NCBI GenBank assembly: GCA_965226795.1
Contig: CBDDDZ010000005.1
Span: 1-64,000 of the forward strand
Reading direction: 5' to 3'
From: Candidatus Latescibacterota bacterium
Lineage (GTDB): Bacteria > Latescibacterota > UBA2968 > GCA-2709665
DNA length: 64,000 bases
Part shown: positions 17,247 to 46,508 of the stretch, one piece after another
Layout: the number at the start of each line of letters is the position of its first letter
Numbering within the stretch: position 1 is the stretch's first letter
Translations under genes and position numbers: made by a program
The notes under the pieces: model-generated
What the model saw: the letters and a program-made list of their open reading frames with translations, nothing else
What the model was told of the DNA's origin: nothing
Database searches by the model: none

Positions 17247-19745
17247 ATGGCGGATGAGACAACGTCAAAAAGTATGGAAGTGATCGACCGTACGCACGTC
17301 CCCGGCGAGGTGCCCATGTTGAGAAGCAGGGACGTGGTGATTTTTCCCTACATGTTGTCGCCTTTGTTTATCGAAAGCGAACAGGCGATCCGGGCCGTGG
17401 ATACGGCCGTGAACGGCGGGCATCGGATCGTAGCTTTGTTCGGGCAGAAGCCGGTTCCGGAACAACGGGAGACCGGACCGAAGAACGACGTCGGTGAGGA
17501 GGAAGGCGAGATTCAGGCCGAAGACCTTTACCAGGTGGGCACGGCGGTCCAGGTGGTCCGGATGCAGCGAACGCCGGAAAACAAGCTGCAGGTGCTTGTC
17601 AACGGAATTGCCCGCGTGGGCCTGCAGGCGCTGGTTCAAACCACGCCCTATCCGCTGGCACAGGTCAAGGTGCTGGAGGGATGGGCGGAAAAGACGAACG
17701 AGTTGGAGGCGCTCTCCCAGAACGTGATGGGTCTGTTCAAGAAGGCCATGGAATTGGTGCCCAATGTGCCCAAAGAGCTGATTGCGGCGCTGGATTCTCT
17801 GACCGAAAAGGAACAGAAGGTGGATTTTATCGCTTCCCAGTTCAACCTGAGGTTTGAAGAGCGGCAGGAGGTGTTGTCTGAACTCAACCTCAGACTCAGG
17901 TTGGAACTGATTCACAAGTTTCTGACGCGGGAGGTCGAAATCCTGGAATTGCGGCAGAAAATCCAGAGCGATGCGGCCGGTTCCATGGATGAGGCGCAAC
18001 GGGAATATTTCCTGCGACAGCAACTGAAGGCCATACGCGAGGAACTGGGCGAAGGCGAGGACGAGGCCGAGGAGGTCGAGGAGTTAGCCGGAAAAATCGA
18101 AGCCGCGGGCATGCCGGGCGAGGCGCGAAAAGTCGCCGAGCGGGAGCTCTCGCGGATGGACAAGATGGCCCGCGAGTCCGGCGAATATACCGTGTCGCGG
18201 ACCTATCTGGACTGGCTGGTCGAACTGCCATGGAGTAAGTCGAGCGAAGATCGTATCGACGTGGACCGGGCGCAGAAGATTCTGGATGACGACCACTACG
18301 GGATAGAAAAACCGAAGGATCGAATTCTGGAGTATCTGGCGGTTCGGGGGCTGAAAAACGACATGCGGGGTCCGATCCTGTGCCTGGTGGGTCCGCCGGG
18401 TACGGGGAAAACGTCGCTGGGCCGTTCCGTGGCGCGTGCCCTGGACCGCACATTTGTCCGGATATCGCTGGGCGGCGTTAGGGACGAATCCGAGGTCAGG
18501 GGCCACCGGCGGACCTACGTCGGTGCGCTGCCGGGGCGGATTATCCAGGGTTTGCGAAGGGCGGGTACAAACAATCCGGTGTTCATGCTGGACGAGATCG
18601 ACAAATTGGGCGCCGATTTCCGGGGCGACCCATCCGCGGCGCTGCTGGAGGTGCTGGACCCCGAGCAGAATTGCGGATTCGAGGATCATTACCTGGACGT
18701 GCCGTTCGATCTCTCGCAGGTGATGTTTATTGCCACCGCGAACACGTTGCATACGATCCCGCCCGCGCTGCTGGACCGGATGGAGGTCCTGGAACTGCCG
18801 GGCTATACCGAGCAGGAGAAGATGCAGATCGCCCGCTGCTATCTGGTGCCCCGGCAGCTTGACGAGCACGGGTTGACGGCCAGGCGGCTGGAAATCGACA
18901 ACGAGGCGCTAACGGGATTGATCCGATACTATACCTGCGAGGCGGGGTTGCGGAACCTGGAGCGGGCGGTGGGAACGCTTTGCCGGAAGGTGGCGCGCCG
19001 GTTCGCACAGGGTCGGAAGCGAAAGGTGAAGGTGAAAAACGGGCAGTTGCACGAATACCTGGGGTCCCGGCAGTTCCAGCACGAAATCGCCGAGGCCAAT
19101 GACGAGGTCGGCGTTGCGGCGGGGCTGGCGGTGACGTCTGCGGGCGGGGACGTGATGTTCGTGGAGGCCACCCTGATGCCGGGCGCAGGGAATCTGAACC
19201 TGACCGGTCAGGTGGGCGACGTGATGAAGGAGTCCGTGCAGGCCGCGATGACGTACGTGCGCTCCCGGTGGGAGAGCTTGGGATTGCCGGAGAAGTTCAG
19301 CGAGGAAAAGGACGTGCACGTTCACGCACCCGCGGGAGCGGTGCCAAAGGACGGGCCGTCGGCGGGCATTACGATGGCGGCCGTGCTGGCGTCGGTTTTT
19401 ACGGGGCGGCCCGTTCGAAAGGACGTGGCGATGACCGGGGAAATTACGCTGCGCGGCAAGGTGCTGCCGGTTGGCGGCGTGCGGGACAAGATATTGGCCG
19501 CGCACCGCGCCGGCATCCGGACGGTGATCCTGCCTGACAAAAACCGAAAGGACCTGGAGGACGTGCCGGATGCGGTTCGGAAGGACGTAAAGCTGGTGTT
19601 CGCCGACCATATGGACAAGGTGCTGGATACCGCTTTGGTCAAAAAGCGGCGGGCGTCGGCCAAACGCCGACCCTCGGTGGCGGGGAAACGGTCATCCGTC
19701 CGCTCCGGCACCCACCCGCGGCCGGCCGTGACGGCGGACGGGTGA
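17247..19745 (+). CDS. lon: ATP-dependent protease La
   Basis: LON N-domain, GPPGTGKTS, RGHRRTYVGA, PKDGPSAG catalytic Ser, TGEITLRGKVLPVGG..K. Confidence 0.97.
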   Translation: MADETTSKSMEVIDRTHVPGEVPMLRSRDVVIFPYMLSPLFIESEQAIRAVDTAVNGGHRIVALFGQKPVPEQRETGPKNDVGEEEGEIQAEDLYQVGTAVQVVRMQRTPENKLQVLVNGIARVGLQALVQTTPYPLAQVKVLEGWAEKTNELEALSQNVMGLFKKAMELVPNVPKELIAALDSLTEKEQKVDFIASQFNLRFEERQEVLSELNLRLRLELIHKFLTREVEILELRQKIQSDAAGSMDEAQREYFLRQQLKAIREELGEGEDEAEEVEELAGKIEAAGMPGEARKVAERELSRMDKMARESGEYTVSRTYLDWLVELPWSKSSEDRIDVDRAQKILDDDHYGIEKPKDRILEYLAVRGLKNDMRGPILCLVGPPGTGKTSLGRSVARALDRTFVRISLGGVRDESEVRGHRRTYVGALPGRIIQGLRRAGTNNPVFMLDEIDKLGADFRGDPSAALLEVLDPEQNCGFEDHYLDVPFDLSQVMFIATANTLHTIPPALLDRMEVLELPGYTEQEKMQIARCYLVPRQLDEHGLTARRLEIDNEALTGLIRYYTCEAGLRNLERAVGTLCRKVARRFAQGRKRKVKVKNGQLHEYLGSRQFQHEIAEANDEVGVAAGLAVTSAGGDVMFVEATLMPGAGNLNLTGQVGDVMKESVQAAMTYVRSRWESLGLPEKFSEEKDVHVHAPAGAVPKDGPSAGITMAAVLASVFTGRPVRKDVAMTGEITLRGKVLPVGGVRDKILAAHRAGIRTVILPDKNRKDLEDVPDAVRKDVKLVFADHMDKVLDTALVKKRRASAKRRPSVAGKRSSVRSGTHPRPAVTADG

Positions 19746-19928
19746 GTGAGATTCGCAGGCGGAATATCGCAAGGAAGTATGGTGAACAGAGAAGGGTCGA
19801 GGCGCGCACGTGCGGCTTCGACCCTTCTCTTCGTTATACAATCGAGCAGATGCGATTAGAGATTTGGGACTGGATTACCTCGTATTTCGGCAAGGCTGGC
19901 ACGTTCTGTGGCACGGAACCGTGAGGAA
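19686..19928. repeat. Junction repeat R0 (lon 3' end, terminator, short selW 3' remnant)
   Basis: 19847-19890 matches selW 46273-46316 at 33/44 nt by hand; region before the hairpin aligns without gaps to R1. Confidence 0.8.
19788..19830. terminator. Hairpin terminator after lon (junction copy R0)
   Basis: AGAGAAGGGTCGAGGC-N11-GCTTCGACCCTTCTCT. Confidence 0.8.
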
Positions 19929-22604: not shown

Positions 22605-23102
22605 ATTCCGGTCTCCTGGCTATCGGTGTTGACAGATCGCTCCTGCTATTCCGACTAAGAATAGTACCTGTCCTAAGCGCAATCTGATTTGTGTGATCCT
22701 CTAATGTGCGATATTTATCAAGAATGTATTACATGTTGCTGATGCCATTCGACACCCGAAATTTGTCCCGTTATCCTTTTTTTGACACGACCGCATTTGC
22801 CGTTGGGCACACGACCCTCAATTGGGTATGGGACTCGCCGCGGTCGGCTCGGCAGCGAATCGTTGAACGGTCTCGCATTCAGCCGGCAGGGGACCGTGAC
22901 CGACTACAAGGGCGGGTCGGGACGAGTGAGATTGTCAGGGGTAGCTGAGTGAGGAAGTCCGGGGAACAAAGAAGGGTCGAGGCGCGCGGCTTCGACCCTT
23001 CTTCAAGTTGTACGATACATCAGATGCGTTTTCCAGTTTTGGGCTGGATTGCTTCGTAATTCGAGGCGCTATCCGGATTTTGCGGTACGGAATCGCGTGG
23101 GG
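22605..23102. repeat. Junction/spacer repeat R1 (promoter block, lon-tail homolog, terminator 22969-23003, selW remnant ~23020-23060)
   Basis: Visual alignment with R0 and R2-R6. Confidence 0.85.
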
Positions 23103-26408: not shown

Positions 26409-27082
26409 TTTTCCGCTCTCCCCGCTATTTCTGTTGGCAGATCACCTCTGCAATTTTAGTCAAAGACTGCACCTGCCCAAAGCGCAATCTGCTTTGTGGG
26501 ATTCTCTAATGTGCAATATCAATCCACAATGTATACATAATTGGAAATACCAGTCAAGACCGGAAATTTGTCCAAACTTCGTAATTCGTCCCTGTTTCCA
26601 CTTTTTCGCGACATGACCGCAATTGCCGTTGGGCGAACCACGCTCAATTGGGAATGGGACTCGACCGGGTTGCCAGGGTTTCGAATCGGAGAACGGTCAC
26701 GTATTCACCAGGCAGCGGACCGTGATCGACGATCACGGCGTGCGTGGACGAGTGAGACTGACAGGGGTAACTGAGTGAGGAAGTTTCGGAAGTAAAGAAA
26801 GGTCGGGGCGCGGGAGAGCAGCTTCGGCCCTTCATTTTTCTGTAGGGTCGTTCAGACGCGTTTGGAGATTTCGTGCTGAACCTTTTCGTACTCGGGAAGC
26901 GGCTTTCCTTGGGCTTGGAGAAGGCAAGTTCGCCGTCGATCGTGACATCACAACGTCCGCCGCCCAAGGGAATGAGTGTGAAGGTTTGAATATCCTGTTT
27001 GAATTCTCACGGGAATCCGTAGGCCCGCAGAATCTTCCTAACCTGGACGTCGCGAGAGGCAGACCTGCCATGGTGATCGCGC
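26409..27082. repeat. Junction/spacer repeat R2 (terminator 26797-26833)
   Basis: Nearly identical to R3 over ~26600-26850. Confidence 0.9.
26852..27082 (-). pseudogene. Decayed selW/Rdx copy
   Basis: Encodes EFKQDIQTFTLIPLGGGRCDVTIDGELAFSK, a 1-nt frameshift, then PEYEKVQHEISKRV*; homologous to 46272-46508. Confidence 0.85.
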
Positions 27083-30000
27083 TTATTGGCCAAAACTGCT
27101 TGCAAAGATCAGAAAATCACTAAACCCAACCGTGCCATTCCCATCCAGATCGAACCGCGCGTCATACCCCGTGTCGCCCTGGCTCAGCCCGAACTGCGCC
27201 GCGAATTTCAGAAAGTCAGAAAATCCGACGTTCCCGTCGCCGTCGAAGTCGGTAGTGGAGAATGGGGGTGTGATGTAAGGAGCAATGTCCCACTGCAACA
27301 TCGTGCCGTCGCGGCTGCCACTGAACAGGGTCATTCCATCCGGCGAAAACGCCACTGAATTGACGACATTCGAGTGCCCTTTGAGCGTGGCGACCTGTGT
27401 TCGCGAAGCCACGTCCCATAACCTGATCCTGCCGTTTGTCGCCCCGGAGGCCAGCGTGTTCCCATCCGGCGAAAACGCCACCGAATTCGGAAACGGCACC
27501 GAATAGACGCCATAATTCCGGTTTCCTTCGTTTCCTTCGAGCGTGGCGACCTGTGTTCGCGAAGCCACGTCCCATAACCTGATCCTGCCGTTTGTCGCCC
27601 CGGAGGCCAGCGTGTTCCCATCCGGCGAAAACGCCACCGAATTGACGCCAACCGTATGCCCGTCGAATGTGGCGACCTCCGATCGCGTGCCCACGTTCCA
27701 TAACCTGACCGTGCCATCCTTCGATCCTGAGGCCAGCGCCCCGTCGAGCGAAAACGCCACCGAATTCACTTCATCCGTATGTCCCTGAAGTACGGCGACC
27801 ACCGATCGCGTCGCCGCGTCCCACAGCCTTACCGTGCCATCCACGCCCCCTTCAGCCCACCCACCCGCCGTCGCCACCAGTGCCCCGTCGGGCGAAAACG
27901 CCACCGAATTGACCCAACCATTGTGCTCTCTGAGCGTGGCGATCTCTGCTCGCGTGGCCAGGTCCCACAGATGGAGCCGCCTATACGACCCGGCAGCCAG
28001 TGTGCCGCCGTCGGGCGAAAATGCCACCGACCTCAGCGAAAACGGAGCGGTAAACGAGGCATCCCACGAAAGTGTGACAATCCTCGAATGTGTGGATGGG
28101 TTCCATAGGGTAACCTGGCTGTTGCGCGATACGGTGGCGAGGATGGTGCCGTCCCGGGAGAGTGCCATCGAGTTTAGTGACGCATACCCGTAGAGCGTGG
28201 CGGTATTCTCCGTCTCTATATCCCGCAGTCGCACCGTGCCATCCCGCGTGCCCGCAGATGCAAGGGTCGCGCCGTCCGGCGAAAACGCCATTGACGAGAC
28301 TTCTTTCTGTCCTTCGATCAAGGCAAGCCGATCCTGGGTCGCCACGTCCCACAGAACAATTGCGCCATCAAAAGACCCGGTAGCCAAGATGGCGCCATCT
28401 GGCGAAAACACCACCGACTGATCCCAACGACCCGGGTTCTCCAGCGTAGCGATGGGTGATCGCGTGGCCACGTCCCACAGAATCACCGTGCCATCCCATT
28501 GCGCGCCCGCAGATGCAAGGTGTCCCCCTTTGGGCGAATACGCCACCGATGTGACCGGCTTGGTGTGCCCTTGGAGCGTGGCGATCTCGGTACGTGTGGC
28601 CACGTCCCACAGCCGCACCGTGCCATCCTGAAACCCCGATACCAGCCTTGACCCATCCGGCGAGAAAGCCAACTCGCTCAGGCTATATGCGCTATATCCG
28701 TCCCGCGGCACCTCCCACGTGGCAACCTGACGTCTTGTCGCTACCTCCCAAACCCTGATGACCTGATCAGTTGATCCCGATGCCAGAACCGTGCCGTCAG
28801 GCGAAAAGGCCAGCCCATACACAGCGGTCCCATGCCTTAGCGTACCGATGCGATCCCCGGTTTCCACCTCCCATAATTCGACCTCTCCACTGGCCGACCC
28901 CGCGGCAAGGATGCCGCCGGCTGAGAACGCTACTGCATTTACGAGGGAACTCGGCAGCAGCGACAATGCGCGGGCCGTAGCCACCTCGTACAGCCATACG
29001 CCGATGTTGCTGGCCACGGCCAGCGTTCGTCCATCCGGAGATAGGGCTACCGCCCGGTCACCCCATCCGATAGTTCCTTTACCCAGGCGCGCCCCTGCCC
29101 CGTCCGGCAGATGCCACGCCACGTAGTCTCCCTTTAGGACGGTGACTGCGGTTTCCACGCCATCGGCTTGAAAAGTCGCCAATTCTTCACTTCCGATGAA
29201 GACTCCTACGGTGTATGTTCCCGGACGCGGACCCAGCGTCAACGGAATGGCGGCGCGGCCGCTGGCATCGCTGATCACGTGCTGGGCCGTGTACTGGCCG
29301 CTGAGCCTGCCATCGCCACCGGTGACCGTGAAGGTCACCGACGCATCGGGAAGGGGATTGCCGTGTTGATCTTTGACGATCACAACGAGCGGTTGGGCAA
29401 GCACCGACCCCGGCGTGCCATGCTGACCGCCGCCGGAGATGATCTCCAGCGAAAAGGGACGGCGTCGCGTCCACTGGGACGTATCCCACAGATTGACCGT
29501 TTTGTCCCACGACCCCGCAGCCAGGGTGGTGCCATCGGAGGAAAATACCGCCGAAGACACGGGACCCGTATGCCCGGTCAGCGTTGCGATCCGTTCTCGG
29601 GTTCTCACGTCCCACAGATATACCGCTGCGTCTCCCGCACCGGCAGCCAGGATCGCACCGCCGGGGGAAAACGCAAGTGATTGCCACCCCCCGCATTGAA
29701 ATTCGAGCGCGGCGGTCGGAAGCCGCGTCGCCACATCCCACAGCCGCACCGTATTGTCTCCACTGGCACTGGCCAGGGTAGCGCCGTCGGGTGAAAACAC
29801 AACCGAGGCAACATTACGGGGATGTCCTTCAAGCGTGGCGACCTCGGTACGTGTAGCGACGTCCCACAGTCGCACCGTGCCATCGTAGGCCCCTGAGGCG
29901 AGCTTGCCACCATCCGGCGAAAACGACACCGATGTGACGCGATCCGTGTGCCCTTCGAGTGTGGCGACCTCGGTACGTGTAGCGACGTCCCACAGTTTGA

Positions 30001-31318
30001 TCTTTGCGTCTGAAGCACCGGAAACCAGGGTAGTGCCGTCCGGGGAAAACGACACTGAATTGGCCCCACCCGTATGTCCTTCGAGTGTGGCGATCTCGGT
30101 GCGCGTGGCCGTGTCCCACAGTTTGATCGTTGCGTCTGACGAACCGGAAGCCAGGGTAGTGCCGTCCGGCGAAAACGACACTGAGTTGGCCCTACTTGTA
30201 TGTCCTTCAAGCGTGCCGATTTGTTCAAGGGAAGTCCTCACAATACTAAACCAATAGTGACTCGTGTTTCCCCGGGTATCAACGGCAATGATCCGTATTG
30301 GTTGAGTGGGTTCGTCAATAAGCGTATTGCCGCCGTCACGATTATAGGTACTGCCGCGGAAGTCGAATTCAACGACGGCGTTTTCTTCGCCCTTCAATCC
30401 ACGACAAGCGTGAAATTCCCAGGATCTATAAAACAGGAGTACTTGATGAACCCCGTCGGTATCTCCGACTTCGACGCGGATAGGGACACTTAGAGATCCT
30501 GGAGGATACGTCAGCGGCGAAGCCACTGTGATGGTGGGAGGTGACGCCTGTTCAATCGGGATATCGGGATTGAAATAGGGATGTACCGCGAGGAATTCGG
30601 CATGACACGCAGATAGCCGAGTTTGTTCCGGGCCGTAGGACATGATGTAGGCAGGATCGCTAAAATCGTGTTGCAGGCCGAAGGCGTGTCCGATTTCGTG
30701 CCCTACGAGCACAGCGTCGAAAGCGCTGGTAAAGTACACAAACCCACCAACTTTCTCGACACGGCTTCCAATTGCCAACGCATACGGAACCTCGTCAGGA
30801 CTCTGACCAATTTGCCCTCCACTGTTGTCAACGAGGATAAGGTAAACGTTGGCCGCATAGTCGAACGTCGGTGCAAGCTCGTCATCCACAAGTGATCTAG
30901 TATCCTTGAAATAGTGCAAATCAGGGTGCTGACCATCCACGCGGTGAACCATCGGCTCACCCTGTGCATCGTTCTCAAAGCTGAAAGTTCTGTTGCCGTA
31001 GCCGTGCGCCTCCATCTGCTCTGCGTAAAAAGTCTGGACCTGACGAATCACAACTTTCATCGAATCCACCACTTCCTGGCGATAGGAGCGGTCGTTGGGC
31101 AGGAAATAGATCATCCGCACGGTGCGCGGTTCGCCGATGTTGAGATCCGCCGTGCGCTTGGCCGCTGGACGGGGATTCTCCCGCCGCCACTGCTCGTAAT
31201 CGAACGGCACGCAATAATGCACGCTGTCGGACACCGAGGACGACGCATGGCCGACCCCCGACCACAGCATCAGCGTGAGCACAGTCAAGACGGAAAACCG
31301 GAACAGAGTGGGGTTCAT
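27083..31318 (-). CDS. Secreted metzincin-like protease + WD40 propellers + Big_1-like Ig domain + C-terminal EF-hand/dockerin-like module
   Basis: Signal peptide MNPTLFRF..., HEIGHAFGLQH..IMSY, many GH..SVAFSPDG..LWD repeats, terminal DFDGDG pair; start at 31318 (RBS). Confidence 0.85.
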   Translation of the reverse strand: MNPTLFRFSVLTVLTLMLWSGVGHASSSVSDSVHYCVPFDYEQWRRENPRPAAKRTADLNIGEPRTVRMIYFLPNDRSYRQEVVDSMKVVIRQVQTFYAEQMEAHGYGNRTFSFENDAQGEPMVHRVDGQHPDLHYFKDTRSLVDDELAPTFDYAANVYLILVDNSGGQIGQSPDEVPYALAIGSRVEKVGGFVYFTSAFDAVLVGHEIGHAFGLQHDFSDPAYIMSYGPEQTRLSACHAEFLAVHPYFNPDIPIEQASPPTITVASPLTYPPGSLSVPIRVEVGDTDGVHQVLLFYRSWEFHACRGLKGEENAVVEFDFRGSTYNRDGGNTLIDEPTQPIRIIAVDTRGNTSHYWFSIVRTSLEQIGTLEGHTSRANSVSFSPDGTTLASGSSDATIKLWDTATRTEIATLEGHTGGANSVSFSPDGTTLVSGASDAKIKLWDVATRTEVATLEGHTDRVTSVSFSPDGGKLASGAYDGTVRLWDVATRTEVATLEGHPRNVASVVFSPDGATLASASGDNTVRLWDVATRLPTAALEFQCGGWQSLAFSPGGAILAAGAGDAAVYLWDVRTRERIATLTGHTGPVSSAVFSSDGTTLAAGSWDKTVNLWDTSQWTRRRPFSLEIISGGGQHGTPGSVLAQPLVVIVKDQHGNPLPDASVTFTVTGGDGRLSGQYTAQHVISDASGRAAIPLTLGPRPGTYTVGVFIGSEELATFQADGVETAVTVLKGDYVAWHLPDGAGARLGKGTIGWGDRAVALSPDGRTLAVASNIGVWLYEVATARALSLLPSSLVNAVAFSAGGILAAGSASGEVELWEVETGDRIGTLRHGTAVYGLAFSPDGTVLASGSTDQVIRVWEVATRRQVATWEVPRDGYSAYSLSELAFSPDGSRLVSGFQDGTVRLWDVATRTEIATLQGHTKPVTSVAYSPKGGHLASAGAQWDGTVILWDVATRSPIATLENPGRWDQSVVFSPDGAILATGSFDGAIVLWDVATQDRLALIEGQKEVSSMAFSPDGATLASAGTRDGTVRLRDIETENTATLYGYASLNSMALSRDGTILATVSRNSQVTLWNPSTHSRIVTLSWDASFTAPFSLRSVAFSPDGGTLAAGSYRRLHLWDLATRAEIATLREHNGWVNSVAFSPDGALVATAGGWAEGGVDGTVRLWDAATRSVVAVLQGHTDEVNSVAFSLDGALASGSKDGTVRLWNVGTRSEVATFDGHTVGVNSVAFSPDGNTLASGATNGRIRLWDVASRTQVATLEGNEGNRNYGVYSVPFPNSVAFSPDGNTLASGATNGRIRLWDVASRTQVATLKGHSNVVNSVAFSPDGMTLFSGSRDGTMLQWDIAPYITPPFSTTDFDGDGNVGFSDFLKFAAQFGLSQGDTGYDARFDLDGNGTVGFSDFLIFASSFGQ
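27383..27643. repeat. Exact 105-bp direct repeat inside the WD40 region
   Basis: 27383-27487 identical to 27539-27643. Confidence 0.9.
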
Positions 31319-31441
31319 GATCCTTCCCTCCCGTATTTGGAATATGCAACTACTGCGGCAGTGACCCGCACGTGACGCCACGCCGTAAGGATCGAATCAC
31401 TGCGTTACTCCTCTAAGGCCACCAGGCCCAGCACCGGTGCC

Positions 31442-31768
31442 TCATGCACCCTGGCCGAAGCTGCCGGCAAAGATCAGAAAATTACTGAGCCCGATGGCGC
31501 CGTCGCCGTCCAGATCGAACCGCCCGTCGTACCCCGCGTCTCCCTGGCTCAGCCCGAACTGCGCCGCGGACTGCACAAAGTCAGAAAAGCCGATCGTCCC
31601 ATCACCGTCAAAGTCTGGAATAGACGCGGTATCGCCCCCGTTGGCACCTACGGCGACAGCATGCGTTGCTGTGCGATCACCGGCAGCATCGGATCGCGTC
31701 GCGGCGTAACACACAAGTGCCAGCAGTGCAAGGGCCTTACTGAACATTATTCTATATCGCGATGGCAT
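31442..31768 (-). CDS. Signal peptide + EF-hand module only (chimeric mini-gene)
   Basis: MPSRYRIMF leader of the LRR genes fused to the AAQFGLSQGD.GYD.RFDLDGDG...FGQ tail of the WD40 genes. Confidence 0.7.
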   Translation of the reverse strand: MPSRYRIMFSKALALLALVCYAATRSDAAGDRTATHAVAVGANGGDTASIPDFDGDGTIGFSDFVQSAAQFGLSQGDAGYDGRFDLDGDGAIGLSNFLIFAGSFGQGA

Positions 31769-31886
31769 TTACCGGTCTCCTGGCTATCGGTGTTGACAGA
31801 TCGCTGCTGCTATTCCGACTAAGAATTGCACCTGCCCAAAACGTATTCTGTTTTGTGGGATGCTCTAATGTGCGATATTAATCCTG

Positions 31887-31916
31887 AATGTATACACAAT
31901 TGGAAATATCAGTCAA
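31887..31916 (-). promoter_or_regulatory. Conserved sigma70-like promoter of the cassette genes (also 22723-22752, 26528-26557, 36373-36402, 38723-38752)
   Basis: TTGACT/TTGACG/TTGCAT/TCGAAT-N18-TACATT at the same position in five spacers. Confidence 0.6.
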
Positions 31917-32211
31917 GACCGGAAATTTGCCCCACCGTTCACAATTTGTCCCGGTTTCCACTTTTTTGCGACATGACCGCAATTGCCGTTGGGTGAACCA
32001 CGCTCAATTGGGAATGGGACTCGACCGGGTTGCCAGGGTTTCGAATCGGAAAACGGTCACGTATTCACCAGGCAGCGGACCGTGATCGACGATCACGGCG
32101 TGCGTGGACGAGTGAGATTGACAGGGGTAACTGAGTGAGGAAGTTTCGGAAGTAAAGAAGGGTCGGGGCGCGGGAGAGCAGCTTCGGCCCTTCATTTTTC
32201 TGTAGGGTCGT

Positions 32212-32442
32212 TCAAATGCGTTTGGCGATTTGGGGCTGGATCTCTTCGTACTCGGGAAGCGGCTTTCCTTGGGCCTGGAGAGGGCAAGTTCGCCGTGGAT
32301 CGTGACATCACAACGTCCGCCGCCCAAAGGAATGAGTGTGAAGGCTTGGATATCCTGTTTGAATTCTTACGGGAATCGGTCGGTCCGCAGAGTCTTCCTG
32401 ACCTGGACGCCGCGAGAGGCAGACGTGCCATGTTGATCGGGC
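32212..32442 (-). pseudogene. Decayed selW/Rdx copy
   Basis: EFKQDIQAFTLIPLGGGRCDVTIHGELALS, same frameshift as in R2, then PEYEEIQPQIAKRI* identical to the selW C-terminus. Confidence 0.88.
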
Positions 32443-35931: not shown

Positions 35932-36022
35932 TTGTATGCCCTTTCTTTAGAGCGACAAGCAACCATGCGTTGCAATCGCCGGATGTGTCGGCGCTCGCCG
36001 CACCTCGTACACTGCAATTTCG

Positions 36023-36247
36023 TCATTGCAAGCGGAACTTCGCAGCGAACTTCACGAAATCGCCAAAGCCGATCGTCCCGTCGCCGTCAAAGTCTCGTAT
36101 GGACGCGGTATCGTCGCCGTTGGCATCGACGGCTACAGCATTGGTTGTTGTGGGATCAATGTTTGCATTGGAACCTGTCGCGGCGTGACATACGAATGCC
36201 AGCAGCGCCAGGGCGGCACTGAACATAATTCCATTTCGCGATTGCAA
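36023..36247 (-). pseudogene. Truncated leader + half EF-hand fragment
   Basis: MQSRNGIMFSAAL...DFDGDGTIGFGDFVKFAAKFRLQ*; 36043-36218 matches 40373-40548 with 5 mismatches. Confidence 0.75.
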
Positions 36248-36778
36248 TTTCCGCTCTCCTAGCTATCGGTGCTGACTGAACGCCCCGGCTACTTCGAAAA
36301 GATAAGCAAAACAGCACATGCCCAAAGCGCAATATGTTTTGTGTGGTCCTCTATTGCGCAATATTTATACTGAATGTATCACATGTCTCAGATGTCCGTC
36401 AAGATGCGAAAATTGCCCCTCCGTTCGCAATTTGTCCCGGTTGCAACTTTTTCCGGCATGACCTTATTTGCCGATAGGCACGGGACCCTCAATCGGGGAT
36501 GGGACTCGCGGGTGTCGCCTGGCAACGAATCGGAGAACGGACGCTTCTTCACCTGGCGCCGGACCGAGATCGCCTATTAGGGCGGGCCCGGACGAGTGTG
36601 ATTGACGAAGGTATCTGAGTGAGGAAGTTTGGGGAGCAAAGAGAATGGTAAAGGCGTGTACCAGCGGTTTCGACCCTTTCTTTCATTTATTTGCGCATAG
36701 ATGCAGTAGGCTAATTGGGACGGAGTTTCCTGTATTTCGGTACGGCTGGCGCGTTCTATGGCACGGAAACACGAGGAA
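36248..36778. repeat. Junction/spacer repeat R4 (degenerate terminator ~36638-36683)
   Basis: Homologous to R1-R3 and R5; cargo-proximal end resembles R0. Confidence 0.8.
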
Positions 36779-38605: not shown

Positions 38606-39098
38606 TTTTCGCTCTCCTGGCTACTTTTGTTGACAGATCGCCTCTGCGATTTAATCAAGAACTGCACCTGCCAAAAGCGCAATCTGGTTTGTGCGATGCT
38701 CTAATGTGCAATATCAATCAAGAATGTATCACATATTGCTGATGCCATGCAATACCCGAAATTTGCCCCACCGTTCGCAATTTGTCCCGGTTTCCACTTT
38801 TTTTTCGTATAACCTCATTTGCCGTTGGGCACGGCACTAAATCTGGGACGAGACTCGCCGGGGTCGGCTCGGCGATGAACTTGAAAATGGCCTCGTATTC
38901 ACCTGGTACAGGGCAGCGATCGACTATAACGGCGGGTTTGGACGAGTGTGACTGACACGGGTAACTAAGCGAGGAAGTTTGGGCAACAAAGAAGGGTAGA
39001 GGCGCGCGGCTTCGCCCCTTCTCGTCGTTATGCAATCGATCAGATGCGTCTGGCGACCTGGCGCTGGATTCCTTCGCTGCCCCGCAAAACGCCATCCA
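38606..39098. repeat. Junction/spacer repeat R5 (terminator ~38990-39022, selW remnant ~39040-39076)
   Basis: Homologous to R1-R4. Confidence 0.85.
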
Positions 39099-40580: not shown

Positions 40581-40689
40581 TCGAACCATCCTGTTCATAA
40601 CTACCGGATTTCTACTCAGACCCATTCAATCTGGTGGAACCCGGATGCCGAGTTACATCACTGCAACCGCCTCAGTTACGGATGTCGAC

Positions 40690-41214
40690 CTCGTTATCGG
40701 GTATAATGCGTCCAGTAATGGTACGCAATGTGAAACCGGCGTTCAACGCAGTTTGTTTGTCGAATCGTCCGTAATTTGTCCTGGATTCCACCAATTACGA
40801 TATGTCGAATGGGAGGATAGATTCGATGGTGGGGACCCCCCACCGTCGCGTTTCGACGTGCGAACCGTAGCGGCAGGTTTCAAGCCTGCCCTAACTGTCC
40901 TATGTGCACGGATGCGAGGGACATCGGATACTGTCTGCTGGGTTTCGGCGGCGAGATCCTCTCTTGAGTGCCCATGCCGGCAGAACGACGTTGAGGCGGG
41001 CAGACAGGAATGTCCGCCCCACCTTCAGGCAAGTTTCCTTAGGGTGTTGGCGCAATGCTGAAAACGGTGCTTAGACAAACAAAAAGGGTCGAGGTGCTTG
41101 GCTTCGACTCTTTTATTTGATGGATGATCGGTTAGAAGCGTTTGGAGATTCCGGGCTGGATCTAAACGACCAGCGAGGCGGGATCCGGATAATCCTGCCC
41201 GGAATCTCTATGAA
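40690..41214. repeat. Degenerate junction repeat R6 (terminator ~41082-41114, selW remnant ~41132-41163), interrupted by REP-like palindromes
   Basis: AATTTGTCC box at ~40773; AAAAGGGTCGAGG...GCTTCGACTCTTTT; GCGTTTGGAGATTCCGGGCTGGATCT. Confidence 0.65.
40828..41022. repeat. REP-like palindromes
   Basis: GGTGGGGACCCCCCACC; GTAGCGGCAGGTTTCAAGCCTGCCC (GTAG-type); GGCAGACAGGAATGTCCGCC. Confidence 0.5.
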
Positions 41215-41274
41215 TCAAGGGCCAATCGTGCGGATGACACGACACTGGAGGTCAATCGCGTAGATTGGATTCAT
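41215..41274 (-). pseudogene. Orphan C-terminal remnant of an LRR-protease gene
   Basis: Translates MNPIYAIDLQCRVIRTIGP*, homologous to MNEPIYVIDPQGRVVSTIRQ*, at the expected position before R6. Confidence 0.75.
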
Positions 41275-42047
41275 CCGGTTTCGTGGACGATTTCTGTTGA
41301 CACCTTGCGGAGCCAGGCTCCTCTTCCCCCGTTGCTGTCAGTGGACGGATTCGAGCGATAATTGCCTCGACGGTCTCGGTGACCGCCGAGAGCAGCGTGT
41401 AGCGGTCTTCGATGACCACCTCTGCGTCTGCATAGCGGTATCGCACCGGGTATTCGGTCAGCCAAGCCAGCTTCTCGCCGGCCGAAGTGTCGATTTCGGC
41501 CGGACGCCGGCGCACGGTCTCCGCGAGCACCGTCAGGTCATGCGTATTGTGATAGTCGGTGTCGAGAGCAGAAATCCAGCCCTTCAGCGCGTTCTCAAGA
41601 GCCTGTTGGGCGGCAAACCCAATCAGTTCTTGCGAAGAACGGGGGTTTTCAATAAGAACGTCGAGATCTTCGAGACAACGCCTGGCATTGGCGATGCGCT
41701 GCCGTACGTCGGGCCAGTTGGTCGGTTCAGGGTTGTCGTAGCTTACTTTGTCGCCATTCGCATCGAATCCGTCGCGGACGGCCTGGCCTGCCACGTGGTT
41801 GCGCGCTCGGCGACCGTAATGGAATGCCCGTTCGCTCATGCGGACTAAATCGACGCTGGTCGAATCCCCGTACAGTTCCTCGACTTTGCGGTGAGCTGCG
41901 GCGCTCGTGCGTTGATACTTCCGGCGGTCCGTGGAATCGGAGTCGGTGATGATGAGCAGGTCGACGTCCGAATCCGGGCTGTAGTCGCCCCGGGCGCACG
42001 ATCCGAACAGAATGACACGGTCCGGGCGGACCGCCTCACCTACGGCG
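41252..42047 (-). pseudogene. MNT (nucleotidyltransferase)-HEPN fusion, 5'-truncated second copy
   Basis: VILFGSCARGD..DSDVDL, QQALENALKG, THDL, VRYRY; homology to the 45222 copy ends at ~42047 with no start codon before phoX. Confidence 0.75.
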
Positions 42048-42072
42048 CCAGGGACTTGACTGAGGCCTCGGC

Positions 42073-43440
42073 TCAGCCCGTCCAGGGCCCGGTGATGGCC
42101 AGGGTGATCCCGGGCGACTGGATGTTGGCGTAGAGCGTGCGGCCGTCGGGCGAGAACGTGGCGCCGGCGAACTCGGACTCGTTGAAGGCGTTGCGGCCGA
42201 GCTTGTAGATCCGCCCCTCCGGAGTGACCCCCACCAGGTGGTTGTCCCCGCCGCCGTCCTCGCAGAGCACGAGGTCGCCCCAGGGCGCCACCGTCAGGTT
42301 GTCGCAGTTCTCCACCAGGTTGCCGTCGTTGGGCTCGATGAACAGCTCCAGGGTCCCGGGCGAGGCCGTCTCGTCGGGCGTCCCCTCGCTGGGGCTTGGC
42401 TCGTAGCGCCACACCTGCCCCTTCTTCTCCTTGCCGCCGCTGGTGCATGCGAAGTAGACGGCCTCCCGGCCGTACCACATGCCCTCGCCGCGGGCGAAGC
42501 GGGCGGCGCCCTTGTCGAATCCCTGGTTGCGCAGGTCATCGTCCGGGGACTCCACGTCCTCCATATCGACCCAGGCCGCGGCCAGGCGGTCCCCGGGAGC
42601 GACGGTCTGCGACTTGTGGTTGGCCGTGTCCAGGCTCGGCCGGTCAAGGGCCATGAGCGCCTGCAGCTGGCCACCGGCCGCGAGACGTCCGGGCTCGTCG
42701 GGCAGGTAGCGGTAGATGAGACCGTCGCCGGCGTCCTCGGTCTGATAGACGATGCCCGTCGCCGGATGGACGGCCACGGCCTCGTGGTTGAAGCGGCCCA
42801 TCGCCTTCAGGGCCACCGGCTCCACCGGCCCCGTGGCCGGGCCCGCCGGGACCTCGAAGTTGTACCCGTGGTCCTGTTCGTGGTTGTCGTCGGCGTGCTG
42901 GGTCGTCTCCTCGCAGGTGATCCAGCTTCCCCAGGGGGTGAGGCCGCCCGCGCAGTTGCGCACGGTGCCGGCGAGGCTGAGGTAATGTTTCTCCAGCTCA
43001 CCGGCGGGGCCGAGCACGAAGGTCGTCGTCCCTCCCTGCGGCGGATCGCCGCGGCCCCAGTCGTAGAACCGTTCGCGCGGCAGCTTGCCGAGACGCTCGT
43101 TCTCATCGCCGAAGGCGCCGACCTTGCGGGCCCCCGCAGTGAGTTCGTGGTTGCAGACCAGCAGGGTCCGTCCCTCCGCCCCGGGAAAGGCGGCCATGGC
43201 GTCGGGCAGCCCCGGCACTCGCAGGCCATCGTCCATCTCGACGCCGATGCGGGAGATCACCCGGTAGGTGAAGCCCGCGGGCAGGTCGACGATCCCGCCC
43301 GGGTCCGGTCGCATGGGGCCGTAGCCCGCGGCGATCCCCTCCTCGGGGGCCTGCCCCCAGACCACGTGGAGCTGCAGCCCTTGGAATCCCAACGTGACGG
43401 CGGCCGCTGACTTCAGGAACTGTCTTCTGGTGACGGGCAT
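42073..43440 (-). CDS. phoX: PhoX-family (DUF839) alkaline phosphatase, Tat-exported
   Basis: TRRQFLK Tat motif, NHE, NCAGGLTPWGSWITCEE, MGRFNHEA, TED, CDNL, CEDG, EFAGATFSPDG..L..NIQ.PG. Confidence 0.88.
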   Translation of the reverse strand: MPVTRRQFLKSAAAVTLGFQGLQLHVVWGQAPEEGIAAGYGPMRPDPGGIVDLPAGFTYRVISRIGVEMDDGLRVPGLPDAMAAFPGAEGRTLLVCNHELTAGARKVGAFGDENERLGKLPRERFYDWGRGDPPQGGTTTFVLGPAGELEKHYLSLAGTVRNCAGGLTPWGSWITCEETTQHADDNHEQDHGYNFEVPAGPATGPVEPVALKAMGRFNHEAVAVHPATGIVYQTEDAGDGLIYRYLPDEPGRLAAGGQLQALMALDRPSLDTANHKSQTVAPGDRLAAAWVDMEDVESPDDDLRNQGFDKGAARFARGEGMWYGREAVYFACTSGGKEKKGQVWRYEPSPSEGTPDETASPGTLELFIEPNDGNLVENCDNLTVAPWGDLVLCEDGGGDNHLVGVTPEGRIYKLGRNAFNESEFAGATFSPDGRTLYANIQSPGITLAITGPWTG

Positions 43441-43540
43441 CTACTCGATCCTCCCTCAGTAGTGAACAATCAAAGATAAGCTTCCTTCCCACTCACGACG
43501 GCGAGACGAGGCGCAGACGCGGAGGCCGTGAACCTCGCCG

Positions 43541-43561
43541 ACTCCCCCTCAAGGGGGAAGT
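43541..43561. repeat. Short extragenic palindrome near the phoX boundary
   Basis: ACTCCCCCTCAAGGGGGAAGT. Confidence 0.4.
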
Positions 43562-43650
43562 AACGAGGGGAGATATGTGGTACTGTCAAGTTATCCTGGC
43601 GTCAAGTAGGACTTCAATAGGAGGATGTCTCTGTCCCAAGACTTTGGCCT

Positions 43651-44706
43651 TTATTGCTTCTTCACCGTTTCCGCATTTTCCCCGGTCCCTTGATCGGTCC
43701 TCGTCTGCTCGTCGAGCCGGCGTTTCCTTTCAACGCGTCTGTCCAATTCCAATATGGCATTCCGGTATTTTCCGCTGAACTTTCTGGCATTGGCTTCCTG
43801 CAATGCGGTTCGCGCCTGGTCGAACCGATCGGTATACATGTAGCTCAGTCCAAGATTGAAATAGGCCTTATGGACTTCGGTTGAATTGGAATAGGTCTGC
43901 GTTGACTCCTGAAAGATGTTGAGCGCGGCATCCCAGTTGCCCGCGTCGACCATTCTGAAGCCGCGTTCCAGTTCCGGCATTTCCTTGGCGGTTTCGAAAG
44001 AGACGTACACGCGCTCGGTATAGGGCACAATCATCCGCACAAGGGACTGCACAATATCCGCCGTGCACGCAGCGAAAAGCCGCCTGCGATCGGCATTGTC
44101 GATACTTGCCTCGCTTTGAGTCTTACCCGACGTTCTTACTGTCTCACGTTCGGAAAATTTCCTGCTGGCCAGAATCCTCGATGTCTGCAAATCCACGATT
44201 CGCAGTTGGACTTCCACACGCGCGGTGCCTCTGCGGTCGTATTTTCGATTGCTGGTTTTCTTGGTTGTCTTCTTGTCCTTTTGCTTGACATTCTCCCTGG
44301 TTTCCTCCTCGTCGTAGTCGTAGGCCAGGATACCGCCCGAAATGAGGGCGACGTTCCCTTCAACGTCGTTCCTGCCATGTCCGATCTTCAGGCTCTCATA
44401 GTCCAGGAGTTCAAATCGCCCGGATTGTGAAAGCGCCTGCGACATCTCAGCGGAGAATCTCCGGAGCCAGGTGTCTTTGGATTCCACACCCTGCAGAAAC
44501 TTACCCCAGTCGCTGAGTTTCGATACGAATCCGCTCCCCGATCCCTTTATTTCGCCAATTGCGATCTTGTCAAAATCCCGCAGGTTGATTTCAGCCGGAC
44601 GCGTTACCAGGATGGAGAGTCTCTTGCTGCCGCTGCAACCTGCAAACAGACCCGAGATCGATAAGAGTGACCAGAGGATAAGATTCAGCCAACACGTTTT
44701 TTTCAT
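43651..44706 (-). CDS. Lipoprotein with CsgG-like N-terminal region and C-terminal TPR
   Basis: LFAGC lipobox; VEVQLRIVDLQTSRIL; AYFNLGLSY TPR. Confidence 0.7.
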   Translation of the reverse strand: MKKTCWLNLILWSLLSISGLFAGCSGSKRLSILVTRPAEINLRDFDKIAIGEIKGSGSGFVSKLSDWGKFLQGVESKDTWLRRFSAEMSQALSQSGRFELLDYESLKIGHGRNDVEGNVALISGGILAYDYDEEETRENVKQKDKKTTKKTSNRKYDRRGTARVEVQLRIVDLQTSRILASRKFSERETVRTSGKTQSEASIDNADRRRLFAACTADIVQSLVRMIVPYTERVYVSFETAKEMPELERGFRMVDAGNWDAALNIFQESTQTYSNSTEVHKAYFNLGLSYMYTDRFDQARTALQEANARKFSGKYRNAILELDRRVERKRRLDEQTRTDQGTGENAETVKKQ

Positions 44707-45221
44707 ATCGTCGCACTCGAAGTGGGGTTTTGTCCACGTTATTTGGACCTAAGTGGATCCGATGCGGATTGGATGCTGCAAGCTGTGCGAAAAACGCCTT
44801 GTCCCGCGTTGAAAGGGGCTTGTGACGAGAAAAGTATTGCGAGACTCCACCGACGTCAAGTCGAACACGGATGCCGGTGAGATTTCCGGAGCGTGTTTCG
44901 CTTTTGTAAAAGTGAGACTGGATTGGGATCGGGAGGCGTTCCGAAAGTCAGGTGGCGGGCACGGGGACGAGGAAGGCGAGGCGATTACAGGGTCATCTAA
45001 CTCTTGTATGCGATGGCACGATCCATCTGGATGTTGTCTGAATATCCGAAACGGACAACGAACGGTCAGGCGGATAGAAACCAGCGGGAAACGTGGTACC
45101 CGCAATCTCGCCGAAACAGGAACGCTTTCTCGATAATATCGCCCTATTCAGGCGCCGGTTCATCAGGTCTCCCGGACGAATTCCGTTGAACTGTCCTGGA
45201 GCCGGGCTTCGTGAATGTCGT

Positions 45222-45989
45222 TTAAGTCAACGCGCGGATACGGACCATAATCGCTTCGACGGTTTCAGCTACCGCCGAGAGCAGCGTGTAGCGGTCTTCG
45301 ATTACCACCTCTGCGTCTGCATAGCGGTATCGCACAGCGTACTCGGTCAGCCACGCCAGCTTCTCGCCGGCCGGGGTGTCGTTTTCGGCCGGATGTCGGC
45401 GAACGGTCGCCGCGAGTATGGCCAGGTCATGCGTGTTGCGATAGTCGCCGTCGAGCGCGGATATCCAGCCCTTAAGTGCATTTTCAAGAGCCTGCTGCGC
45501 GTGAAACCCGATGGCTTCCTGAGCGGAATTGGCCTCTACGAGAATCTTTAGAACGCCGAGTTCCCGCTCAGCATTGGCGACACGCTGCCGTATGTCGGGC
45601 CAGTTGGTCGGGTCCGGGTTATCGTAGGACGCTTTGTTTCCATTCGCATCAAATCCATCGCGGACTGCCTGGCCTGCCACGTGGTTGCGCGCCCGGCGAC
45701 CGTAGTGGAACGCCCCTTCGCTCATGTGGACCAGATCGACGCTGATCGAATCGCCGTACAGTTCGTCGACCGTACAGTGGGCCGCCGCGCTCGTGCGTAG
45801 GTACTTCTGCCGGCCCAGGGGATCAGAGTCGGTGATGATGAGCAGGTCGATGTCCGAATTCGGGCTGAAGCCGCCACGGGCGCGCGAGCCGAACAGAATG
45901 ACCCGGTCTGGGCGGACCGCATCACCAACCGCCCGGGCGACGGCGCATGCTTTCGGGTCAGGAGACAGATGAGTTGGCGGTGTTGGCAT
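45222..45989 (-). CDS. MNT (nucleotidyltransferase)-HEPN fusion protein
   Basis: VILFGSRARG..NSDIDL; FHAQQALENALKG, THDL, YAVRYRY; start uncertain (45989-46028). Confidence 0.85.
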   Translation of the reverse strand: MPTPPTHLSPDPKACAVARAVGDAVRPDRVILFGSRARGGFSPNSDIDLLIITDSDPLGRQKYLRTSAAAHCTVDELYGDSISVDLVHMSEGAFHYGRRARNHVAGQAVRDGFDANGNKASYDNPDPTNWPDIRQRVANAERELGVLKILVEANSAQEAIGFHAQQALENALKGWISALDGDYRNTHDLAILAATVRRHPAENDTPAGEKLAWLTEYAVRYRYADAEVVIEDRYTLLSAVAETVEAIMVRIRALT

Positions 45990-46271
45990 GGTTAACTTTC
46001 GGCTTCCACTTTGCTGTGTACGGATCACGAGAACCTGCCGGTCAAACCCGGAAACCGGTGGTTATGCTGAATAATCGGCTGTTTTTCAATGACTTTAGCG
46101 TAGAATGTACCGACAACCTGTCAATTCGCGGATTCGGGTTGTTCAGAGTGAGGTTGCGCGCTCTATGGTGGATGGATTCATCGCTGTACCCGGAAAAGGG
46201 AGCATCATTCTCGGGTGTTGTCCTTTCGATCCTGTCCATCCATGCAGAATCCGGTTACTGAATTAAAAAGT

Positions 46272-46508
46272 TCAGATGCGTTTCGCTATTTGGGGCTGGA
46301 TCTCTTCGTACTCGGGAAAGCGGCCCTCTTTGAGTTTGGAGAAGGCGAGTTCGCCGTCGATGGTGACCTCGAATCGTCCGCCGCCGGAGGGAATGAGTGT
46401 GAAGCCTTCGATATCCTGCTTGAACTCTCTCAGGAGTCTGTCCGTCAAACTGACGGTCTGATCTTCGTAGCCTCAGGCCGCGCAGTATTCAATGTCGATT
46501 TTGGGCAT
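46272..46508 (-). CDS. SelW/Rdx-family selenoprotein (CxxU), 78 aa, missed by the ORF track
   Basis: AGGAGG RBS; MPKIDIEYCAA-UGA-GYEDQTVSLTDRLLREFKQDIEGFTLIPSGGGRFEVTIDGELAFSKLKEGRFPEYEEIQPQIAKRI*; UGA at 46473-46475. Confidence 0.9.
46442..46456 (-). promoter_or_regulatory. Putative bacterial SECIS element
   Basis: CCGUCA-GUU-UGACGG hairpin; loop G lies 23 nt after the UGA. Confidence 0.7.

Follow-up and report, generated by a model that had tools for sequence, protein, structure and literature searches.

A tandem-paralogue array between lon and selW in a Latescibacterota bacterium, with spacers that appear to descend from the lon–hairpin–selW junction

Here, we analysed a window of 64,000 nucleotides (nt) from a Candidatus Latescibacterota bacterium (contig CBDDDZ010000005.1 of assembly GCA_965226795.1, positions 1 to 64,000), in which the Lon protease gene lon and the selW/Rdx selenoprotein gene selW converge upon an interval of 26.5 kb that holds large cargo genes, spacers and a repeated DNA hairpin. 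The genome under study is referred to as G000 (5 contigs, 5.4 Mb, 3.5% contamination) and the genomes of its relatives as G002 to G021. An earlier sequence-only reading had described the interval as a cassette array with no local integrase, in which each spacer repeats the junction of lon, a terminator and selW, and had proposed the two core-gene ends as the recombination anchor. Indeed, both boundary genes are intact, as that reading stated, by their Pfam and Rdx matches (Table 1). The lon protein shares 87–93% amino acid (aa) identity with those of 14 congeners, and the 237-nt selW gene contains a TGA read as selenocysteine within a CxxU motif.

All seven hairpins that had been proposed were recovered, 3–8 nt from the positions first given. 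The division into seven spacers (R0 to R6) between co-oriented cargo holds for 19.7–41.2 kb and fails for 41.3–46.2 kb, where two MNT-HEPN genes, phoX and a TPR lipoprotein gene follow one another with zero spacers; a hairpin profile search found no hairpin next to the intact selW of G000. R1–R5 align to one another with 71–90% identity over about 400–760 nt, R3 being 90% identical to R2. To the right of the hairpin, the sequence resembles the selW 3' end in all seven cases, with an identity of 0.58–0.92 against a shuffle mean of 0.42–0.43 (p ≤ 0.01), which bears out the proposed decayed selW copy after each hairpin. This match covers 172–177 nt of the gene in R2 and R3 (81–82% identity) and about 30–60 nt in the other spacers. 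That the R2 and R3 copies are near full length is plausible, their gap of 256 nt between hairpin and cargo stop codon being compatible with a whole decayed selW; the 5' quarter gave no significant alignment. Functional selW paralogues in R2 and R3 are ruled out, as both copies are frameshifted and contain a stop. A second Rdx/selW paralogue with CxxU lies at G000:C5:3012813-3016071, with CRISPR arrays and a split match to MNT and HEPN in its vicinity.

To the left of the hairpin, the proposed lon tail was recovered in R1–R5 as a weak remnant of the last 50–60 nt of lon and its 3' flank. On a profile of 15 real lon ends, built with the hairpin excluded, R1, R2, R3 and R5 scored 8.5–11.2 bits and R4 7.4 bits, compared with 8.5 bits for the best and 1.4 bits for the top 1% of 2000 random windows; R6 gave no score. 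Outside R1–R5 of G000, this tail was found in the copy of R1 in G013 and in two copies in G016, while most other internal hairpins scored nothing. The selW remnant was detectable in 29 of the 49 copies tested, with an extent of about 30 to 177 nt, trimmed to family-specific lengths. The gap between hairpin and cargo stop codon amounts to 99–118 nt in 11 LRR-peptidase copies and to 247–256 nt in 4 WD40 copies, as if each family had joined once and had then been copied. We infer that the lon and selW remnants are decaying passengers. The promoter regions of R1–R5 are 74–82% alike, and three of them contain the promoter-like TTGAC-N-TACATT; since the promoter scan overall returned 9 sites against 9.3 expected, these three are counted only because they recur in register.

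The six large cargo proteins all carry a HExxH motif and a dockerin-like pair, with LRR or WD40 repeats among them. Genes c1, c2, c5 and c6 start with a common leader and a twin calcium-loop domain, and c3b and c4 end with that domain. In the PDB, this domain is matched best by cellulosomal dockerin-bearing chains (E 2e-5 to 1e-4); the dockerin-like domain has 86 matches in the genome, where cohesin domains are also present. The leaders are 65–85% alike, and the leader/dockerin region of c1, c2, c3a, c5 and c6 shares 61–80% aa identity over about 100 residues. From our reading of the N-termini, the cargo is predicted to be secreted. Judged by these similarities, the six large genes are a paralogue family, not assorted cassettes. 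The sequence-only reading had left their common promoter, leader and dockerin-like domain unweighed. The short frame c3a is itself a hybrid, whose identity switches near codon 57–61 from the c2 type (0.80–0.90) to the C-terminal type of c4 and c3b (0.77–0.93). We read it as the trace of a dockerin-by-dockerin crossover that would have placed a WD40 gene behind the cassette promoter. The broken stub before c4 is 97% identical to the c6 leader across 176 nt.

Table 1. Genes, hairpin and spacers of the lon–selW interval; positions are those of the window
Feature	Position	Strand	Evidence or remark
lon, intact Lon protease, left boundary	17247..19745	+	Pfam Lon_C (E 8e-89), LON_substr_bdg, AAA
Hairpin T0, adjoins lon; A-rich left, T-rich right flank	19794..19824	.	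likely bidirectional intrinsic terminator
R0, decayed selW 3' end	19846..19894	-	17.4 bits on selW profile; random best 8.2 (2000 windows); p 0.005
c1, leader, dockerin-like, LRR, HExxH (M8-like), 891 aa	19929..22604	-	
Spacer R1	22605..23102	.	shared promoter region; lon remnant about 22885-22945; hairpin 22974-22998; selW remnant about 23018-23063
c2, leader, dockerin-like, LRR, HExxH, 1101 aa	23103..26408	-	
Spacer R2	26409..27082	.	TTGACT-N18-TACATT 26528-26557 (-); lon remnant about 26709-26776; hairpin 26800-26830; selW remnant 26850-27020
c3b, own signal-like N-terminus, HExxHxxGxxH, WD40 repeats, C-terminal dockerin-like	27083..31381	-	
c3a, 108-aa hybrid stub, N-terminal dockerin start joined to C-terminal dockerin end	31442..31768	-	best PDB matches: dockerin-bearing chains
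Spacer R3	31769..32442	.	promoter-like 31887-31916 (-); lon remnant about 32069-32135; hairpin 32160-32190; selW remnant 32210-32385
c4, HExxHxxGxxH, WD40, C-terminal dockerin-like, 1162 aa	32443..35931	-	95% nt copies in G013, G016
Broken leader and dockerin stub before c4	35932..36228	-	in-frame stops; dockerin profile match
Spacer R4	36229..36778	.	promoter-like 36373-36402 (-); lon remnant about 36553-36618; degenerate hairpin 36646-36676; short selW remnant
c5, leader, dockerin-like, short LRR, HExxH, 608 aa	36779..38605	-	
Spacer R5	38606..39098	.	promoter region; lon remnant about 38915-38973; hairpin 38994-39018; selW remnant about 39038-39098
c6, leader, dockerin-like, uncharacterised HExxH domain, 508 aa	39099..40625	-	
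Spacer R6	40626..41251	.	different upstream region; lon remnant absent; hairpin 41086-41110; selW remnant about 41131-41166
c7, fused MNT-HEPN gene	41336..42055	-	79% aa to c11
phoX (Tat signal), long-standing interval resident in genus	42073..43440	-	92-99.5% nt in four congeners
TPR/CsgG-like lipoprotein, interval resident	43651..44706	-	
c11, fused MNT-HEPN gene	45222..46028	-	
selW/Rdx selenoprotein gene, intact, right boundary	46272..46508	-	Rdx E 4e-21

What kind of element is the hairpin? The copy next to lon (T0) folds with −37 kcal/mol on the + strand and −32 on the − strand (z −6.3 and −5.7), and in G018 and G021 the hairpin is the sole stem between the stop codons of lon and selW. 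Its flanks are A-rich on the left and T-rich on the right. Among 56 copies, the stem letters are conserved in about 46–53 at most positions while the flanks drift, and the loop ranges from 5 to 12 nt. Copies on the lon side contain 8 G-T versus 1 A-C pair on the + strand and 9 of 12 fold better on that strand; copies on the selW side contain 0 G-T versus 15 A-C pairs and 6/6 fold better on the − strand; internal copies have a mixed preference (18/36). The stem wobbles thus track the transcribed strand, as for a terminator, and we consider the hairpin the likely bidirectional intrinsic terminator of the two convergent host genes. In a tree of hairpins, lon-adjacent copies are interspersed with internal ones and the selW-adjacent copies of the genus form one group. 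In hairpins of the R6 type (R6 itself and copies in G008, G013 and G003), 3–6 of 25 positions differ though the flanks are 90–98% alike; this stem-loop seems to change faster than its surroundings.

The hairpin profile found no further copy in the 5.4-Mb genome at E below 0.03, and the 10-mers of the hairpin arms occur genome-wide at expected counts (19 vs 24.5 and 25 vs 20.5). A repetitive extragenic palindromic (REP) element or a DNA uptake sequence can thus be ruled out, as can a known RNA family, since no Rfam match reached the gathering score in 17000–48500. Within the order, the exact hairpin pattern occurs in 12/14 congeners, in 1/7 other genomes of the family and in 1/31 genomes of another family. 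In public collections the pattern returned 99 metagenome loci and at least 127 genome loci. Of the 226 loci so listed, just 12 score 35 bits or more against the hairpin profile, 2 match the selW profile and the remainder are unrelated palindromes; among the genome loci listed with the hairpin, 4 are labelled Candidatus Latescibacterota and 1 Gemmatimonadota. One Anaerolineae assembly (L134, L137, L140 and many further loci) contains dozens of 24-nt palindromes that fit the pattern, not the profile, and that we read as an unrelated REP-like repeat.

Comparison with relatives points to the origin of this arrangement. The gene lon is present in 14/14 congeners and in 5/7 other genomes of the family. 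In three genomes from two other genera (G018, G020 and G021), lon and selW lie 80–136 bp apart around the hairpin, and these empty alleles match the ancestral site of lon and selW converging on a single terminator that had been postulated. G019 and G017 contain single insertions of 1.1 and 3.6 kb, in which the hairpin is not duplicated. The insertion in G017, from another genus (L016:1163-4540), is a lone NHL-repeat protein gene with a C-terminal dockerin-like domain between lon and the hairpin; its lon-side stem differs, and we regard it as a case in which this protein class arrived here independently. G015 and G016, both single-contig and rated 97% complete, gave no full lon match, and their selW has other neighbours.

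Within the genus, both genes lie on one contig in 12/15 genomes, with an interval of 4.6–33.0 kb and 1–7 hairpins; the assemblies of the remaining 3 are broken within the interval. Comparing these lon–selW intervals, we found that cassettes vary in number, content and order, as the sequence-only reading had anticipated. G012 has the order lipoprotein, MNT-HEPN, phoX, MNT-HEPN; G002 has MNT-HEPN twice, phoX and lipoprotein; G004 extends over 33 kb with just 3 hairpins and additional ankyrin, CARDB and FGE-sulfatase domains. All BLAST matches are co-oriented, which rules out the phoX-block inversions that the picking of open reading frames had suggested. A hairpin adjoins the intact selW in 8 of the 15 genomes. 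To the right of the 56 hairpin copies lie an MNT-HEPN gene or a piece of it (21), an LRR-peptidase gene (11), intact selW (6), a WD40 gene (4), a c6-type gene (4), a lipoprotein gene (2) or unassigned sequence (8).

Cargo and junction also pass between species and genera. G016, which belongs to another genus, contains a copy of R3 and c4 with 95% identity over 3.8 kb, far from its own selW, while its M32 gene is 67% identical to that of G000. The selW remnant of this block is 78–81% identical to selW of the G000 genus and does not match the selW of G016 itself. Next to the block lies a hybrid of a c1-type leader and a c6-type body, and the recipient site has almost nothing in common with G020, a congener of G016. 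At other loci of G008, G012, G015 and G016, cargo is likewise accompanied by hairpin or selW remnants, and the junction would therefore be a passenger that is unneeded as a landing site. Between G000 and G013, phoX is 99.5% and the M32 gene 82% identical, which indicates patchwise exchange across the whole region. Across the genus, the conservation of phoX (92–99.5% nt) exceeds that of lon and the M32 gene and suggests repeated recent exchange. G000 has open frames for recA, dprA and comEC.

Where do these exchanges begin and end? We defined tracts as stretches of at least 150 nt with at least 93% identity among intervals, and sharp ends as points where an identity of 90% or more falls to 72% or less, which yielded 103 sharp ends in 53 clusters. 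The hairpin, a target of 1.3% of bases with about one cluster expected, has 2 of the 53 within 15 nt. By our own count, 21 fall in the coding sequence of the cargo paralogues, 15 of them in the leader/dockerin region, about 10 lie within MNT-HEPN or at its edge, and a further 20 are in sequence that is otherwise intergenic or unannotated. In G013, a copy of R1 with 97.6% identity lies between different gene bodies, and the surrounding tract (22566–23390, 94.5%) reaches from the leader of one gene to the 3' part of the next. A microhomology of 12 nt links the selW remnant with the 5' part of MNT-HEPN in G008 and G013, where c7 is mostly deleted; this trimmed junction has been copied onward, three times in G008 and once in G003.

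Tests for a dedicated recombinase were negative. No integrase was found among the 23 window proteins, nor among 38 proteins of relatives scanned, which include one DUF772 transposase in G013 whose gene interrupts a c6-type cassette (L004:2580-4103). The claim that the array lacks a local integrase is confirmed: the genome contains 4 PF00589 matches, all more than 2 Mb away. The best TIGR02249 score in the genome was 106 bits, against a cut-off of 265 for an integron integrase, and no large serine recombinase was found there. The boxes of an integron attC site are commonly written RYYYAAC and GTTRRRY. Both boxes were present on the cargo strand in 0/56 hairpins (1 RYYYAAC, 0 GTTRRRY), and the other strand held 0 and 1 single boxes. 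The identity of the array as an integron is ruled out by these box and integrase tests. An atypical tyrosine recombinase frame of 283 aa heads an integron-like array 2.3 Mb away (G000:C5:2316000-2362000), which has TAAC...GTT repeats; these share no sequence with the hairpin, which on sequence grounds rules out attC identity and a use of that array.

On these grounds we favour, with a probability of roughly 70%, an accordion of tandem paralogues, namely genes for predicted secreted, dockerin-tagged zinc proteases alongside MNT-HEPN genes, whose spacer is a fossil of the lon–hairpin–selW junction, shuffled by homologous recombination and by transfer across species in the absence of a dedicated recombinase. 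Comparison with relatives shows that lon and selW were once convergent neighbours with a single common hairpin. An ancestor of the genus may then have duplicated a block of a few hundred bases, comprising the lon end, the hairpin and much of selW, with foreign genes arriving between the copies. Deletions at short homologies, seen in the one case of the MNT-HEPN junction and presumed in the others, would have trimmed the selW copy and fixed the hairpin distance of each gene family. The mosaic tracts suggest that the units were then copied and permuted as repeats of the leader/dockerin, LRR, peptidase, MNT-HEPN and hairpin kinds underwent unequal crossover and conversion with one another, and that dockerin-by-dockerin crossovers likely import WD40 genes from other clusters. 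Blocks have crossed species and genera, as their sequences show, the route likely being natural transformation. Finally, the hairpin would have been retained because of its function as a working terminator, while the lon and selW remnants decay as passengers. Tandem duplication with unequal crossover, the second of the two routes in the sequence-only reading, fits this account.

Several observations weigh against it. Both the recombination dynamics and the termination are read from sequence. Neither the 53 clusters nor the compared pairs are independent, and plain divergence at gene ends also makes tract ends. The strand bias of the wobbles rests on 6 kindred selW-side copies, and the excess on the + strand could be mutational. 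Several internal hairpins of G000 are weak on the cargo strand (z −1.2 for R2, −0.1 for R4 and −1.5 for R5), and a simple terminator scan picks only R5 among them. The hairpin core of 25–31 nt is short for RecA, and spacers within one genome are mostly 60–80% alike, too diverged for frequent present recombination; among the G000 spacers, R2 and R3 (90%) are the only good substrate. In addition, 13 of 38 informative pairs have an identity of 84% or more on one side of the hairpin and of 66% or less on the other. Two intragenomic tracts end 1–2 nt past its right arm, and several pairs change sharply there. In G003, two copies agree fully over the roughly 250 nt that end at the loop and differ past it; in G008, two copies share 97% identity over a 973-nt stretch that reaches the right arm. 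Such swaps cannot be placed inside the conserved arms. Neighbouring spacer windows switch in 18/39 and 16/46 pairs and windows beyond 150 nt in 0–6 of 52–68, counts that are inflated by indels as the windows are anchored on the hairpin. The neighbouring windows thus switch about as often as the hairpin, and the spacer as a whole is unstable. The swaps of flanks at the hairpin fit conversion tracts that end at the last well-kept island of homology.

Could the core-gene ends themselves be the anchor, as the sequence-only reading held, with circles integrating by a single RecA crossover within the duplicated homology of lon tail, hairpin and selW tail? The layout of selW, hairpin, cargo, selW remnant, hairpin and lon is the expected product of such an event. 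G016 holds a well-kept block of lon tail, hairpin and selW (32 bits), and both the hairpin next to intact selW in about half of the genus genomes and the mixing of lon-adjacent with internal hairpins in the tree would be in line with it. However, most internal copies lack the lon tail, the selW remnant is undetectable in 20/49 copies, and where present it is 58–92% like the intact gene. Moreover, junction blocks sit at loci without lon or selW, including two genomes in which no lon was found, and tract ends fall mostly in cargo, with the hairpin close to its chance share. As a general account, we therefore hold the anchoring at core-gene ends to be unlikely; a single RecA crossover may account for the first duplication and some of the additions.

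Alternatively, the hairpin or the selW 3' end could be the site of a recombinase acting in trans, making the array an integron-like or additive-island system without an integrase of its own. This would explain why the stem letters are kept while the flanks drift, as well as the abrupt exchanges of flank at the hairpin. The loop is of unequal length in 5 of 14 pairs that share the left flank only and in 1 of 3 that share the right flank only, and candidate enzymes exist in the four tyrosine recombinase genes and the distant integron-like array. The absence of paired attC boxes in all 56 hairpins, of an IntI above cut-off and of a large serine recombinase speaks against it, as do loops that vary between 5 and 12 nt, selW remnants whose length varies by cargo family, the small share of tract ends at the hairpin (2 of 53 clusters) and a wobble polarity that flips with the neighbouring transcript. 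We consider such a trans-acting system improbable, and equally so its more specific form, in which a host terminator was domesticated as a recombination site that is cut and joined in a single-stranded DNA fold or by a candidate recombinase in trans. If true, a hairpin-directed site would constitute a new cassette system for secreted dockerin-tagged proteases, promoter-carrying and cross-genus, without integrase or attC boxes.

The reality of the array was checked against the contigs of four read runs, none of which spans the whole stretch. The best run (X1) contains exact pieces of the array. From another study, run X3 contributes a contig of 19451–20023 with 0 differences that connects the lon end, T0, the selW remnant and the c1 end, and a contig across R3 and c4 (31995–35500) with 11 differences; one further X3 contig leaves the reference inside the R2 promoter region. 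The depth of X3 is zero at 36428–37091, which we do not count as evidence that this part is missing, and joints at 90% likeness, mostly from other WD40 and LRR genes, were set aside. The single-contig relatives G008 and G009 have independent arrays with 7 hairpins each, and together with the X3 contigs this makes an assembly artefact unlikely. That the array is a chimera of repeated, strain-variable genes, which the five contigs and the contamination of the assembly, the lack of a spanning X1 contig and a fall in X1 depth from 15 at lon to 3–9 in the array might suggest, is very improbable given copies that are 60–90% alike and not identical, the X3 contigs across the R0 junction and R3–c4, and the independent arrays. 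The exact order of units within one cell is plausible from the assembly.

Further tandem clusters occur in G000 at C5:322000-341000, C5:3092000-3112000 and C2:391000-405000. The first two encode WD40-type proteins with C-terminal dockerin-like domains, and the third consists of short lipoprotein-like frames that repeat about every 600 nt. These clusters are possible donors for the array. In six intergenic repeat regions inspected by eye at other loci of G000, no duplicated core-gene junction was recognised; these regions are a CRISPR array, the integron-like array, plain tandem paralogues or other repeats. The HExxH domain of c6 (about 380 aa) matches no Pfam family, and an Atlas search returned hypothetical proteins only. 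For MNT-HEPN, PADLOC gave partial PDC-S09 matches, insufficient for a defence-system call. Eukaryote-like repeat proteins of the LRR, WD40, ankyrin and NHL types, the class to which the cargo belongs, are reported for sponge-associated Latescibacterota (PMC12993501).

How does the array relate to known systems? With integrons and clusters of attC sites lacking integrases (CALIN) it shares a row of co-oriented genes and a palindromic site with variable loop after each; it differs in having no R boxes, no unpaired central spacer, no IntI above cut-off, and cassettes that are paralogues with promoters. The closest parallel is the lpl cluster of Staphylococcus aureus, in which tandem paralogues diversify by homologous recombination (Tsuru and Kobayashi 2008, PMC2568036). 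In that cluster, paralogues of surface type recombine by crossovers inside a conserved gene stretch with no recombinase invoked, and the unit, which varies in number and order among genomes, is one gene's 3' part plus the intergenic region and the next gene's 5' part. Here, we likewise found tandem paralogues with a common intragenic stretch in which tract ends concentrate, the hybrid c3a and, in the one case of R1 in G013, a unit of conserved 3' end, intergenic region and next 5' end. In contrast to lpl, the intergenic unit is a fossil of flanking core genes with its own promoter, and is shared by LRR-peptidase, WD40-peptidase, c6-type, MNT-HEPN and TPR lipoprotein families; exchange crosses species and genera, and the crossover island is the leader/dockerin region.

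Additive islands, as described in reports on Alteromonas flexible islands (PMC4898812), Islander tDNA islands (PMC4383910) and Prochlorococcus tycheposons (10.1101/2020.12.28.424599), also have a fixed site with variable cassettes, a repeat of the target gene that marks additions, and near-identical cassettes in different species. An intact selW with seven displaced 3' remnants on the same strand is of this kind. However, the target here is a small protein gene with a terminator and not a tRNA gene, no integrase or remnant of one was found in the interval, let alone one per unit, and the remnants are decayed and of family-specific length (about 30–177 nt) rather than cut at one att site. The T6SS (type VI secretion system) immunity arrays and the orphan Rhs arrays of Vibrio cholerae arise, according to their description, by homologous and homology-facilitated illegitimate recombination (PMC5361080). 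They too are integrase-free and integron-like, with insertions that leave gene-end remnants and arrays that move by homologous recombination; here, there are no toxin–immunity pairs, a whole gene with promoter and terminator is added, and the remnants are of housekeeping genes. In a literature search of open texts, supplements aside, no account turned up in which a duplicated core-gene junction serves as an array spacer.

In summary, what appears to be new is a spacer built from flanking housekeeping genes and their terminator that is common to unrelated cargo families and carried across genera. The empty site and the intermediate states show how an array that looks like an integron can arise without a recombinase. 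The duplication of one housekeeping junction supplies a portable terminator, and a dockerin-like tag supplies the crossover point that feeds in new domains, while the decayed piece of selW is a tag that reveals the origin of a cassette, even at other loci. The locus thereby offers a concrete place for studying the shuffling and the cross-genus passage of eukaryote-like repeat genes.

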